Assembly (NCBI GenBank): GCA_963847185.1
Contig: CAWJYV010000009.1
Coordinates: 1-57,441, forward strand
Length of the DNA stretch: 57,441 bases
Direction of reading: 5' to 3'
Source: an uncultured Methanosarcinaceae archaeon
GTDB lineage: Archaea; Halobacteriota; Methanosarcinia; Methanosarcinales; Methanosarcinaceae
Each line of letters opens with the position of its first letter. Within the stretch, counting starts at the first letter, position 1. The notes beneath the pieces were generated by a model, which saw only the letters and a list, made by a program, of their open reading frames with translations, did no database searches and was not told the DNA's origin. Shown here in pieces: positions 23,809 to 33,677 of the stretch. Position numbers and translations under genes: made by a program.

Positions 23809-25158
23809 TCACAGAGGCCCTGCATATTTACTCATAATATCTTCCAGCAAAGTAAGCCCTCCGCTGAACCCTGCGTAACTGTGCTCCAGCACAACACGGT
23901 CATATGAAGGGAATGAAACCGTCAGATGTATGGCATTGAATTCAGGACCGGCTATATTACTTTCGAGAGAACTCGCAAGCAGGAATAAGAAATTCCTGTC
24001 TTTTAAATTCTGCCGAATACGATAGGCATCAACTTCATAAATTATCTCGGGCCATGCAGGAGTTTCAAGGCCAGTTGTCAGCTCCTCATTTATTAATTCA
24101 CGGGCTTCTTCAGGTGGATTATCCGTTATCTGGACAATGTCAGGTAGATATCCCACCTCATTTGCAAGGTATTTTGTGATGCTTACAGCCGAATTACTGT
24201 CGGCAACAACTGCGAGATACGGATGTGGTCTGACGATCAAAAGTATGTCGCCAATATATTCTGCAAATCTGTACGCCCGCCTTTCCTCTCTGGCAATCAG
24301 ATCTTCAATAATATCTGCTGAAACATCTAACCTTTCTCCGACTACTCTCAGAAACTCTGAGGTTTGCTTGGGTCCGACCGGAACTCCAGGGAAGGAGATA
24401 TAGGGAGTATCAAATTTTTCCTCAAGTTTTCTTGCAGTCTTGTGACCAATCCAGCTTGAAAGAACAATATTATATTCGGCAGCAGGAATTTTTTTCAGGT
24501 TCTCAAGAGCATCAAACTCTCCTACGATCAGATTTGCCTTCAAGCCTATTTTTTCAAGAAGCGTTTTTATCTCTCTTGCTTCCCCTTTCCAGAATATATG
24601 CTGGGAAGGGACTAGACCGAATACATTTACCAGCCCTTTCTCTTTCGGAGCCTTTTCAAGGAGCTGATCGATTACAGCGTCGAAAAAGTATTCGTAGCCA
24701 TCGTACGAGGTCCCTGCAAACCCTGAGGTATTCACATGTATGATCGGGACTTCAGGGTTCTTTTCTTTATACCCTCTGATAACCGACCCCACGTCATCTC
24801 CGATAAGTGAAGGGACACAGCCGGAGATCACTGCAAATAACTCTCCATTTACAAGTTCTACCGTTGACTCAATAAGCTTTTCAAGTTTTTTCTCGCCGCC
24901 GAAAATCACATGCTCCTCGACTAAAGAGGAACAGGGTGTGCTTGTTCCTCCGTAAGGGCCTCCGGCATTCTGGCCGCCGCCGTAAAATTGGCCAAAAAGC
25001 TGCCCGATCCCACATCCTGCCCCGGAATGGAGGATAGGAACAACTCCAAATATGCCGACGGCAGTTGAATACGCCCCTCCGAGTGCGCAGGAGTAACGCG
25101 GCGCTTCGATCGCGCCTGAAATAAGATTGGCTGTCTGTAAAGATTCATCAATTACCAT
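23809..25158 (-). CDS. Nitrogenase-like component 1, beta (K-like) subunit, group IV (Mar/Nfl-type)
   Basis: P-cluster-type Cys in RYSCALGG, HSGAGC, ISGCVPS; EEHVIFGGEKKL; YAGFSGGLTLLED. Confidence 0.85.
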   Translation of the reverse strand: MVIDESLQTANLISGAIEAPRYSCALGGAYSTAVGIFGVVPILHSGAGCGIGQLFGQFYGGGQNAGGPYGGTSTPCSSLVEEHVIFGGEKKLEKLIESTVELVNGELFAVISGCVPSLIGDDVGSVIRGYKEKNPEVPIIHVNTSGFAGTSYDGYEYFFDAVIDQLLEKAPKEKGLVNVFGLVPSQHIFWKGEAREIKTLLEKIGLKANLIVGEFDALENLKKIPAAEYNIVLSSWIGHKTARKLEEKFDTPYISFPGVPVGPKQTSEFLRVVGERLDVSADIIEDLIAREERRAYRFAEYIGDILLIVRPHPYLAVVADSNSAVSITKYLANEVGYLPDIVQITDNPPEEARELINEELTTGLETPAWPEIIYEVDAYRIRQNLKDRNFLFLLASSLESNIAGPEFNAIHLTVSFPSYDRVVLEHSYAGFSGGLTLLEDIMSKYAGPL

Positions 25159-25171
25159 GATTACACCTGAT

Positions 25172-26717
25172 TCAGTCCTCTGCTTGAAGATAATAAAGCG
25201 AATTAGGCTGTTTGTACCACCAGTCCTTGTATGTACTCTGGGTCTTTTCTTTCATAGTTCTCTGGTACGAATGACTTTTCAATGACTGTAAAAGGAAGTT
25301 TCCAAATGCAATCGCTCCCGTATAACCGCTCTGGGCACTCCAGGGATGTGGATCTGACCTCAGGGCATGTACCCTTGTAACACCCTTGTCGCGCTTGAAT
25401 GCACCTCCCTGGAACGGGCAGGTCATTGCAATATCGGGATCTCTCTGGTTTGTTATGTGGGTCTGTTCTGCAGCCTGGAAGGTATTTACCAGAATGTCAA
25501 AGTCCCCCATCTGGGTGATCAGTTTCTCAAGATCCCTGAGTATTAGGTTGTCAAAGTCCTGGCACATTGCGGCTGAAGATTTAAGGCCGAGTTCGTCAAA
25601 GTACGGGACCTGAGCCAGAAGCCTTCCCTGTCCAAGTGCGCCCAGCACTTCTATCTTCTCTCCATTGCCTTTGAAATTTTCAAATTCACTTCTGATTGCT
25701 TTCAGCTTCGGAAGCCACTTTTCATGTTCCTCTTTGATAAGGGCTTCTACTTCCTTTTCTTTTCCAGTATGTCTTGCAATCTCCCTCAGCCATTCATCCG
25801 TATGTGCAACTCCCATCGGAGAGGGATATAGGAAATAGGGAACTCCATATTCCTGTTCAAGCCCGCGGGCGAGATAGTCAGTATAAGTCGGGCACAGTGG
25901 TGCAGTAACTGCAGCTTCGGAAAGTTGCTCAAACTGCTCCACAGATGCAAATTCGGGAATGAAGTTAACTCTTAGACCTACTTTTTCCAGCAGGCGTTTT
26001 ATTTCCAGCCTATCCTGCCATGTATAGGAAAGCATACTTGCTACATTTACGAGATCTTTCTGTTTCTTTTCCGGTTTTTTGACCAGGTACTTTCAGGACG
26101 GCGTGCCAGAAGGCATCATAGCCGGTCTGGACAAGCCTTGAGCGTGAGCCCTCACAATGGATAGGGACGATTGTTGCTTTTACCTGCGGCTGGTATTTTG
26201 CAACAACTCCTTCAATGTCCTCTCCGATTATTCCTGAGGTACAGGATGTAAGTATGAAGATTGCTTTTGGATTGTACCGTTTCTCAGCCTCGAGGATTGC
26301 TGCGCCGAGTTTTTCTCCGGCACCGTAGACGACATCTTTTTCTCCTATGTTTGTCGTAATCCAGTGAAGATCGTAATTGGCAGGGCGCCCAAGTTCAACA
26401 GGCACGTGCCTGTAGAGTTCACGGTATCCGAGAGCTGAAGACGAGCAGCCTACAGGTGCATGATATATAGCTACAGCATCACGGATTGTTCCGATCCTTA
26501 CTGAAAGGTAGAAGTTCAGAACACAACCACTGGACTGCTGAAAATTCCTTCCTCTCTGCCTCAGGCAGCCTGTACGGGCTTCTTTTACAAGGTCACTTGC
26601 TTTTCCATACCAGACATTTATGCCGTTTGCCCTCTGTTCTCTGTTGGGACATGTGGCCCGTGATAGGTCGATTTTTTCTTCGATAAGTTCATTTTCAGTA
26701 AGTTCTGTTTCTGACAT
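25172..26717 (-). CDS. Nitrogenase-like component 1, alpha (D-like) subunit, split by a single +1 frameshift near 26091
   Basis: QQSSGC, HAPVGC, TSCTSGIIGED, HCEG, LCPTY, TRVH; removing one T at 26091-26093 joins the two ORFs as ..AVLKYLVKKPEKKQKDLVNVASMLSYTW.. Confidence 0.82.
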
Positions 26718-26811
26718 CAATATTACTCCGTAAGATACCCGGTTTCCGTAATGAATTCGTCTCCATTTTATTCTGCTCCTGGCATCACTACGTCTAATTG
26801 AAATCAGTGGA

Positions 26812-26877
26812 TATATAAATCGGGAATTCAGCAAAAATGTGACCTTGTTTCTCATTATCCGAAATTTTGCGGCAAAA
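26812..26877 (-). promoter_or_regulatory. Promoter of D/K-like operon with two-site upstream motif
   Basis: Minus strand TTTTGCCGCAAAA-N28-TTTTGCTGAA-N7-TTTATATA; same layout at 32670-32735. Confidence 0.75.
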
Positions 26878-27116
26878 ACCAATACCCTAACTTCCGTCTT
26901 TTTAGGCGCATATATTCTTTTCCGCATCTCTGAGAGGTCAGATGATTGCTGTTTGGAAATTTTACCTTGCATCTGATGTGCTTAAGTTTAAGCGCATTAG
27001 TTGATATCAGGTGACATTTATGTGCTTAAAAATGCGGAACCAAGGCCAATATAGGAGAAATTCAAGAAAATTTACTAAAATTCATAAATCCCAGAAGAAG
27101 TTAGGGAGGAAATAAA

Positions 27117-27236
27117 ATGACCAAGATAACCGATGAATTAGTGATTCGTGGAAACCACATTAAAAACAGAATTGTAATGGCTCGTATGGTTACTTTTTCC
27201 TTTCATGGAGATTGCCCGACAAGAAATGATGAGTAA
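27117..27236 (+). pseudogene. N-terminal fragment of NADH:flavin oxidoreductase (old yellow enzyme family)
   Basis: GGAGGA RBS then MTKITDELVIRGNHIKNRIVMARM..; resembles the family KNRIVMAPM motif; ends after 39 aa. Confidence 0.65.
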
Positions 27237-32535: not shown

Positions 32536-32576
32536 TAGAATCCTCATAACAATAAGGTTTTTCCGCTAATTTATAC

Positions 32577-32605
32577 TTTTCTGATTAATAAGAAAAATCA
32601 GAAAA
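32577..32605. promoter_or_regulatory. Inverted repeat at the hgc operon promoter
   Basis: TTTTCTGATT-N9-AATCAGAAAA next to a minus-strand GTATAAAA (32569-32576). Confidence 0.55.
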
Positions 32606-32669
32606 ATTATCAGAGTAATCTTTTAATTAGCCAGATAAGAAATGGAAATTCAATAAAATAGCAGGGAAT

Positions 32670-32735
32670 TTTTGCCGCAAAATTAAGAAAAACAGAATTT
32701 CAATGTCAATTTTTGCTGAAGTCTAAGCTTATAAA
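32670..32735 (+). promoter_or_regulatory. Promoter of NifH-like gene with two-site upstream motif
   Basis: TTTTGCCGCAAAA-N28-TTTTGCTGAA-N7-CTTATAAA. Confidence 0.75.
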
Positions 32736-32768
32736 TTGTATCTGTTTGTTTCTCCGTATGGTGATGAA

Positions 32769-33677
32769 ATGGCAAAAGCACGAAACATCGCAATCTACGG
32801 AAAAGGAGGTATCGGAAAATCGACTACCTCATCAAATCTTTCAGCAGCTCTTTCGGATCTTGGACTTACAGTAATGCAGATTGGCTGTGATCCTAAGAGC
32901 GACTCTACAAATAACCTGAGGGGAGGAAAATCGATTCCTTCAGTTCTTGATGCTTTAAGGAGTGGGAAAAGAATTGAAACCAGCGACATTGTCTATGAGG
33001 GCTTCAATGGGATCCTCTGTGTGGAAGCGGGAGGACCGGAGCCAGGAGTGGGATGCGCTGGCAGAGGTATTATTACTGCAATTGAACTCCTTAGGCAAAA
33101 AAATGTCTTTGAGGAGTTCAAACCTGATGTTGTAATCTATGATGTCCTCGGAGATGTCGTCTGTGGAGGGTTTTCAATCCCTATCCGTGAAGGTGTTGCA
33201 GAACAGGTCTACACTGTCGCATCCTCGGATTTCATGGCAATATATGCAGCTAACAATCTCTTTAAGGGAATAAGGAAATATGCAAACAACGGCGGTGCGC
33301 TGTTCAGTGGCATAATTGCAAATTCAATGAACCAGCAGATTCAAAAAGAGATAATAAATGATTTTGCAAATCAGACAAAGACAACGATTGCAGGATATGT
33401 ACCCCGTTCGCTTGACGTTACGAGAAGTGAACTCAGAGGGCAAACTGTGGTCGAACATGCACCTGACTCTGAGCAGGCTGAACTGTACAGAGAACTTGCA
33501 AGGGGCATTTTGCACAATGATAAGAAATACGTTCCTGCTCCGCTGGAGTCCGAAGAACTCAAAGTATGGGCTGAAAGCTGGTCAGATATACTCCTCAGGG
33601 AGCGTGAACAGGTACATACAGGAGAAGTGAAAAGAAGCAATGTGGAAGGAAGAACGCTGGTAAGCTCGGAAGCATGA
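32769..33677 (+). CDS. Nitrogenase iron protein-like (NifH/MarH/NflH family) ATPase
   Basis: [47 protein letters not shown] upstream of ATG. Confidence 0.92.

Follow-up and report, generated by a model that had tools for sequence, protein, structure and literature searches.

A nitrogenase-like D-K-H system of methanogens, distinct by phylogeny from methylthio-alkane reductase and possibly serving sulfur acquisition

What does a nitrogenase-like enzyme do in a methanogen when it is not a nitrogenase? The question is raised by a stretch of 57,441 nucleotides (the window) from contig CAWJYV010000009.1 of an uncultured Methanosarcinaceae archaeon (assembly GCA_963847185.1), in which genes for a D-like and a K-like subunit lie about 6 kb from a gene for a NifH-like reductase. 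An earlier reading of the letters alone (the original prediction) had taken them for a heterotetrameric reductase acting on something other than N2, possibly by C-S cleavage for sulfur scavenging, and had likened D and K to the Group IV methylthio-alkane reductase (MAR) proteins MarDK. Our comparative analysis indicates that the system belongs to a Group IV clade of its own, and we lean towards an ATP-driven nitrogenase-like reductase that breaks a C-S bond in an organosulfur compound taken up by the cell. To our knowledge, C-S bond cleavage by nitrogenase-like enzymes (MAR and isethionate reductase, Isr) has until now been regarded as a bacterial trait. The genes in question are the following:

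23809-25158, minus strand: K-like subunit, 449 amino acids, intact (PF00148, E 1.4e-70)
25172-26717, minus strand: D-like subunit, 514 codons in two frames, with one surplus base
26090, minus strand: inserted single base, the g in ctgaaa[g]tacctg, which throws D out of frame
32769-33677, plus strand: NifH-like reductase subunit, by orthology the cognate H, 302 amino acids (PF00142, E 1.7e-100)

D ends 13 bases upstream of K on the minus strand, and H, on the plus strand, starts at 32769 rather than at 32736. Pfam agreed with the NifH-like gene and the K-like open reading frame (ORF) that had been called from the letters: H reaches 336.4 bits on PF00142, and its translation displays the P-loop GKGGIGKS and both cluster cysteines (VVCGGF). 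D, in turn, is not the single open gene that had been described, as one surplus base at 26090 splits it. Profile searches of the window's contig found no further PF00148, PF00142 or nifB match and no P-II match, and AnfG/VnfG had no match in the whole genome; the original prediction's statement that the window has no nifE/N/B/I, anfG/vnfG or cfb genes is confirmed.

The system is nitrogenase-like in D, K and H and yet no nitrogenase, as had been proposed. The best scores of D and K on the NifDK, VnfDK and AnfDK equivalogs were 79.8-97.9 bits against cut-offs of 427-874, with 80-92 bits on the nifD model (cut-off 653.55) and 35.8-48.7 on TIGR03282 (cut-off 268.4), and no curated cut-off for NifD/K/E/N, Vnf, Anf, Bch or Cfb was reached by any of the three proteins. 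H narrowly passes the 'nitrogenase reductase-like' model NF009701 (351.2 bits, cut-off 350), narrowly fails the nifH equivalog (387.1 bits, cut-off 394.35) and stays below the CfbC model (353, cut-off 402). In the careful tree described below, 43 Group IV rows are split from the genome's own NifD and NifE with 100/100 support, and the window's D branches with the former.

Among solved structures, 9FMG and 9D9U, which show the MAR of Rhodospirillum rubrum, stand much closer than any other. K aligns over its full length with the MarK chain 9d9u_C/9fmg at E 1.7e-84, the next best match standing at 2.9e-27; the best solved relative of D is MarD (9fmg_A), on which the D-family profile scores 277 bits, and the model of an intact D ortholog superimposes on the MAR structure with template-modelling scores of 0.80/0.88 at 33% identity. 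The N-terminal motifs of D and K, which had suggested MarDK in the first place, do resemble those of MarD and MarK in alignments. This closeness is the first argument for a true MAR, that is, an enzyme reducing dimethyl sulfide, ethyl methyl sulfide or 2-methylthioethanol to methanethiol together with methane, ethane or ethylene, an explanation that the tree and the pocket residues make unlikely.

In a set of 5.8 billion proteins, the best 120 of 365 matches were 68-96% identical, and their named sources were Methanosarcina, Methanoregula, Methanothrix, Methanobacterium, Methanobrevibacter and Methanospirillum, along with Methanoperedenaceae, Clostridia, Negativicutes and Geobacteraceae. Full-length matches among 50%-identity cluster representatives stood at 71%, 45%, 49% and 39% and then at 30-36%. 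One representative, P0133, scores 616 bits to MarD 9fmg_A and therefore marks the MAR clade. A quick tree was built from 113 rows and a careful tree from 46 of those, after removal of a 40-row clade lacking the P-cluster and cofactor cysteines, the K/N rows, CfbD, two rows from contig 1, P0147 and small groups without labels close to the root. Of the careful tree's rows, 11 make up the window's clade (support 100/99), the MAR representatives and two sister groups form a clade of 16 rows (99/100), and neither is nested in the other. Forcing the window's clade together with the four Group IV-C (MAR) representatives, a grouping chosen only after the tree had been inspected, costs 89.7 log-likelihood units and is rejected by the approximately unbiased (AU) test (p 5.6e-5).

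Judged by this phylogeny, the family is a tight Group IV clade of its own, commonest in methanogens and distinct from methylthio-alkane reductase. The proteins stay clear of NifD and NifE of the same genome, as the original prediction expected, but fall outside the Mar-containing clade to which it had pointed. The clade is found widely among methanogens from soils, digesters, the rumen and termite guts, and the literature searched, as far as its accessible parts go, yielded no description of its archaeal members.

The metal-ligand residues tell a similar story of kinship and departure. The three P-cluster-type cysteines noted in each of D and K are confirmed: C68, C94 and C162 of D align with C66, C91 and C158 of MarD and are cysteine in 29/29 D sequences, while those of K align with C32, C56 and C121 of MarK and are cysteine in all 64 of the 64 clade K sequences. 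The cysteine of the LCPTY motif, Cys278, likewise occupies the cofactor-ligand position assigned to it, as it aligns with MarD Cys270 and is invariant (29/29). These retained residues speak for MAR as well; the remaining positions do not. At the place of MarD Arg428-His429, a loop I pair that excerpts of PMC12552129 propose as a possible MAR hallmark, the family has Cys436-Pro437-Phe438 (TCPFQGG) in 28 of 29 sequences, the other showing a gap, and the profile alignment to 9fmg_A agrees on this Cys-Pro loop with low posterior probability there. The column of MarD Trp195, which in the helix HWSTGFD sits above the belt sulfide S2B, is occupied by Val (26), Ile (2) or Met (1), the family reading RSRLVQTGYD; Cys73-Gln74 of MarD is replaced by Val-Arg and Phe199 by Tyr. 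MarDK membership in the strict sense is thus not supported, on two counts, the position outside the Mar-containing clade and the absence of Arg428-His429 and Trp195.

As for the histidine of the TRVH motif, which had been matched to a cofactor ligand, His453 is indeed invariant (29/29), but it does not stand at the place of MarD His429. It lies instead in a second loop, five residues after a conserved Gly. NifD of the same genome has its His442 equivalent seven residues after the Gly, and His453 stands two alignment columns before it. This loop is 4-6 residues longer than in MarD and carries an invariant Arg451-x-His453. At the Cys436 column, His is found in the nearest outgroup, P0125, where Pro again follows, and in one other Group IV group, and from this we infer that a cofactor ligand was exchanged from His to Cys436 in the family.

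Set against R. rubrum MarHDK (Group IV-C), the family thus shares the three-gene layout of H with D and K, the six P-cluster cysteines, the Cys270 equivalent and the N-terminal motifs, and plausibly the need for a NifB-type maturase. It differs in its separate clade, in Cys-Pro for Arg428-His429, Val for Trp195 and Val-Arg for Cys73-Gln74, in the longer second loop with its invariant Arg-x-His, and in its mostly archaeal hosts, its linkage to an SsuA-type transporter and the absence of an adjacent marB from the methanogen loci. NifDK also shares the P-cluster and cofactor cysteines, and the invariant His lies in the NifD His442 loop, although two columns earlier; the family has no adjacent nifEN or P-II genes, different pocket residues and a separate branch. 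A further point against MAR is a screen published in mBio in 2026, in which, according to excerpts of PMC13753814, no system outside Group IV-C gave MAR activity.

Whether H is the partner of D and K, in spite of the distance between them, is answered by the relatives. In three other Methanosarcinaceae loci, L045, L046 and L052, H adjoins D-K and is transcribed divergently from them, and it shares 95%, 91% and 93% identity, respectively, with the H of the window. The latter is also 72-81% identical to the H of H-D-K operons in Methanospirillum, Methanoregula, Methanothrix and Methanocella, and only 52% identical to the NifH of its own genome. Homology to L052 ends at window position 26875 and resumes at 32667, and L046 has 1.4 kb at this place where L052 has 94 nt; the window's intervening 5.8 kb are therefore an insertion. 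On this comparison the gap between H and D-K is a later insertion, which the original prediction did not mention, and H, D and K are, by orthology and common promoter architecture, one system of mutual partners.

The promoters that flank the inserted block are built alike:

26811-26878, minus strand: D promoter, with the palindrome TTTTTGCCGCAAAAT at 26864-26878, the half-site TTTTTGCTGA at 26827-26836 and the TTTATATA box at 26811-26818
32669-32736, plus strand: H promoter, with the same palindrome at 32669-32683, the half-site at 32710-32719 and the TATA-like CTTATAAAT at 32728-32736

A block of about 90 nt upstream of D is conserved in 13 Methanosarcina upstream regions. In the D promoter, TTTTTGCCGCAAAAT is followed about 27 nt later by TTTTTGCTGA and then by TTTATATA, and in the H promoter the palindrome, half-site and TATA-like box recur at nearly identical spacings, so that TTTTTGC[C/G]GCAAAA[A/T], followed by half-site and TATA box, precedes both genes. 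The general pattern TTTTTGCNGCAAAAW has five sites in the 4.04 Mb genome (the reversed-pattern control has none), and the C- or G-centred palindrome has only three, namely those of D and H and one at C1:215934. Two further TTTTTGCNGCAAAAW sites, at C5:120028 (at a PorB-like fragment) and C7:579969 (inside a polysaccharide-synthesis ORF), were set aside as chance.

The third palindrome, on contig 1, is flanked by a divergent ABC ATPase/permease pair and by the gene of an SsuA-family binding protein. This transporter's permease and binding protein share 77% and 71% identity, respectively, with their counterparts next to H-D-K in L052, and its ATPase is 57% identical to that of another related locus (L080). 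Among other genomes of the genus, G004, G013 and G022, which have D-K, carry the C/G-centred pattern exactly twice each, upstream of D and of H; in G006 and G012, which have no K match, the C/G-centred palindrome is absent, and the reversed-pattern control gave none in all genomes scanned. Directly after the contig 1 permease, at C1:213023-213607 on the minus strand, lies a gene whose product, which bears PF08350 (FilR1 middle domain, 98.6 bits), is a candidate regulator of the set formed by H, D-K and the transporter.

Neighbourhoods in other genomes extend this link to sulfur. When one genome was scanned per species, 146 relatives were confirmed, and from these 77 loci were kept, mostly from methanogens of about eleven genera; the others come from Sporomusa, Geobacteraceae/Geotalea, Bacillota and a few metagenome-assembled genomes of other phyla. 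ORFs were called in the 77 loci and clustered, and one representative was annotated per cluster. The families found, with the number of loci out of 77, were these:

H: 49
SsuA/NMT1-type ABC transporter parts: 29
CysK: 19
O-acetylhomoserine sulfhydrylase: 18
NifX-like: 15
ThiS-like: 11
CysE: 10
Cysteinyl-tRNA synthetase: 6
NifB-like radical-SAM: 6
SepCysS: 5
MetX: 4

At least one sulfur-related family occurs in 48 of the 77 loci, and in 41 of the 48 that have at least 10 ORFs. The proposed sulfur connection is thereby supported by the neighbourhoods in other genomes and by the common operator. For a true MAR, this evidence cuts both ways: the O-acetylhomoserine sulfhydrylase could use its product methanethiol, but volatile thioethers need no binding-protein transporter.

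The same loci bear on another alternative, in which D-K-H would act as a scaffold or reductase in the maturation of a metal cluster or tetrapyrrole, like NifEN or CfbCD, perhaps by supplying methanogens with the L-cluster-type cofactors they require. Methanogens are where the family is richest, the NifX-like carrier genes of the 15 loci stand directly upstream of D, and NifE, though far under its cut-off, is the best NCBIfam match both for K and for the first half of D. We nevertheless judge this role quite improbable. K orthologs (at least 87% identity) were found in only 10 of the 24 same-genus genomes searched, a patchy distribution for a maturation factor; the neighbours are genes of sulfur assimilation and transport rather than tetrapyrrole genes; the six P-cluster cysteines are typical of catalytic DK pairs; and the genome already has nifEN and cfbCD.

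These genes lie on contig 8, which holds a nifH-I1-I2-DKEN cluster, including two P-II genes, and cfbD/cfbC at C8:608337-610226. A genome search for NifB, which had been suggested as a check, returned one gene above the cut-off, at C8:588886 (361.9 bits, cut-off 343.65), and none in the window. The nif cluster also weighs against a further reading, in which the system would be an alternative, Nfa-type enzyme of nitrogen metabolism with N2 or some other nitrogen compound as its substrate, since a full nifHDKEN set with two P-II genes is already present. In favour of that reading, certain Group IV systems have been implicated in fixing N2 (in the accessible part of PMC13474568), and H comes near the nifH cut-off. 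The window has three GGAA-N6-TTCC boxes of the NrpR type, none in either promoter, in agreement with the original prediction; the copy at 32925 lies inside the H coding region. With no P-II gene on the contig, Leu/Val and Tyr at positions that line the NifD active site, and neighbours and a common operator that point to sulfur, we regard a nitrogen role as very improbable. The MAR, cofactor-maturation and nitrogen explanations are each less likely than a sulfur-acquisition reductase.

In the sulfur-acquisition scheme that we favour, H would pass electrons, through its [4Fe-4S] cluster and with MgATP, to a P-cluster at the D/K interface, from which they would reach an L-cluster-type [8Fe-9S-C] cofactor built by NifB. 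This would be in keeping with MAR, for the maturation of which MarB or NifB suffices according to excerpts of PMC13753814. The cofactor would be held by Cys278 at one end and by Cys436 of the Cys-Pro-Phe loop at the other, with the invariant Arg451-x-His453 nearby. An organosulfur compound imported by the SsuA-type ABC transporter would undergo reductive cleavage of its C-S bond, and the sulfur species released would feed the synthesis of cysteine and methionine. A bolder proposal, which we hold as tentative and rather doubtful, is that the family constitutes a new methanogen-centred catalytic class: an ATP-driven C-S reductase with two-Cys cofactor ligation, where nitrogenase and MAR use a Cys/His pair, and with its own operator shared with a transporter, which would open sulfonate or thioether sulfur to archaea. 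We know of no archaeal enzyme that cleaves such a transported sulfonate or thioether compound.

Several observations weigh against the sulfur-acquisition scheme. The count of sulfur neighbours was made without a chance control and with crude ORF calling and clustering, and in the window itself Pfam/NCBIfam annotation placed no sulfur gene beside D-K or H. The SsuA-family matches, at 98.5 and 105 bits, are under the curated cut-off of 163.5, so that the transported compound is not established by them. The AlphaFold2 model of the intact D ortholog has an overall predicted local distance difference test (pLDDT) score of 79 that drops below 50 at residues 437-455, so that Cys436 is preferred to His453 as the ligand on the strength of the alignment. 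The restriction of K orthologs to 10 of 24 congeners, together with a decayed K copy elsewhere in the genome, implies that the system is dispensable and may be decaying. Lastly, D is frameshifted both here and, independently, in a congener (G013).

Two bacterial groups of systems offer the nearest precedents for the sulfur setting. The isethionate reductase IsrHDK of Rhodobacter capsulatus (Group IV-F) keeps the company of an ssu-type ABC transporter and cysE/cysK, as do members of the window's clade, and in the accessible parts of PMC13474568 and PMC11423573 it is described as linked to and co-regulated with them for sulfur acquisition. Isr is, however, predicted to hold only [4Fe-4S], with no conserved ligands for a large cofactor (PMC13474568, in part), whereas the present family keeps all P-cluster cysteines and the cofactor cysteine; the likeness is one of gene company alone. 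Nitrogen-fixation-like systems of Groups IV-D and IV-E, according to excerpts of PMC13753814, stand outside the MAR clade, co-localise with sulfur genes and conferred no MAR activity in R. rubrum. They resemble the window's clade as D/K/H systems outside the MAR clade amid sulfur genes; those sets, from North and co-workers, were assembled from genomes of bacteria, whereas archaea make up most of this clade. Its bacterial members (Sporomusa, Geobacteraceae) may belong to Group IV-D or IV-E.

Should the scheme prove true, an anaerobic route of sulfur acquisition would be added to methanogen physiology, the family would be a natural experiment on the tuning of an [8Fe-9S-C] cluster by its ligands, and a Group IV enzyme would be available in a genetically tractable genus, Methanosarcina. 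For the window's own genome there is a practical point to consider, namely that the D gene is interrupted.

Is the enzyme, then, made in this strain? The D gene is split into ORFs at 26010-26972 and 25172-26035, which match PF00148 positions 11-142 and 159-390 and, apart from the one base, are free of stops. In a DNA alignment with six congeners, the extra base at 26090 is the sole gap column private to the window, and it does not lie within a run of its own letter; D is one open frame of 514 amino acids in five of the six (G004, G022, G024, G001 and G015). The sixth, G013 (locus L034), carries a different one-base deletion, in ...actggaaaag... at alignment column 978. Four metagenome runs were also compared, with contigs placed on 25300-26700: X1, X3 and X5 bridge position 26090, all without the extra base, and X2 does not bridge it. 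The X3 and X5 contigs differ from the window at about one in 100 positions (about 99% identical); the best public run holds 0.59 of the genome's sampled words, and no run is of this genome itself. RNA runs (X15-X20) share 0.12-0.14 of those words and give no evidence of expression or habitat. A programmed frameshift at 26090 was rejected, because a base private to one assembly is no conserved programmed shift. The extra base may be a real mutation or an assembly error, and unless it is a sequencing error the enzyme may be inactive in this strain.

That the locus is a dead remnant in this strain, its frameshift real and its enzyme not made, is an even call in our judgement; it concerns the window only and is compatible with a C-S reductase in the family at large. 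Absence of the base from five of the six congeners and from all bridging contigs, two of them nearly identical to the window, argues for it, as do the decayed K copy and the 5.8 kb insertion with an insertion sequence (IS) element that parts H from D-K. Conversely, K and H are intact and 90-95% identical to their orthologs, the halves of D are stop-free, both promoters retain the operator, and an assembly error is conceivable given that the runs compared are not of this genome. The decayed K copy lies at C4:91697-92636 (L042 3697-4636, minus strand), covers residues 147-449 at 65-72% identity and has six stops; no D remnant was found at this site.

The insertion and the surroundings of H contain the following features:

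26879-32668, no strand: inserted block between the two divergent promoters, delimited by the homology break with L052
27261-27940, minus strand: toxin-antitoxin pair of a HepT-like RNase and an MNT nucleotidyltransferase, inside the block
28847-29885, plus strand: IS630-like transposase, a helix-turn-helix ORF and a DDE_3 ORF in different frames
30354-30635, minus strand: DUF3795 gene, inside the block
30817-31152, minus strand: hgcB (NF040864, 118.6 bits, cut-off 99)
31153-32226, minus strand: hgcA (NF040863, 444.8 bits, cut-off 275)
32245-32547, minus strand: AbrB/MazE-like gene, inside the block
34255-34542, plus strand: ORF of 95 amino acids accompanying H (family F9)

The 95-amino-acid ORF has no Pfam or NCBIfam match and clusters with ORFs that adjoin H in 10 loci, the window included; in Methanospirillum loci its homolog sits between a ThiI/PP-loop gene pair and H. 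The pair hgcAB, responsible for mercury methylation, is seated in the insertion that separates H from D-K. hgcA is present in 12 of 59 genomes of the genus, the window's among them, and in the M. hadiensis locus L045 hgcAB is placed likewise.

D-K pairs can also occur in multiples. In eight of the related loci, from methanogens and bacteria (L064, L068, L074, L076, L078, L083, L089 and L100), two or three pairs of this or related clades adjoin one another, and often every pair is accompanied by a separate gene for an SsuA-type binding protein. In the window's genome, the original prediction made no mention of a second HDK-like cluster, nor of nifHDKEN, nifB and cfbCD outside the window. This second cluster, at C1:110400-113983 (L039 6386-10005, minus strand), begins with an ORF of 778 amino acids that fuses a NifH-like part (8-274) to a NifD-like part (362-762), followed by a K-like gene of 429 amino acids; transposase genes flank it, and it is long-branched in the quick tree. 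A fusion of this NifH::NifD-like kind is mentioned in the accessible part of PMC3464626.

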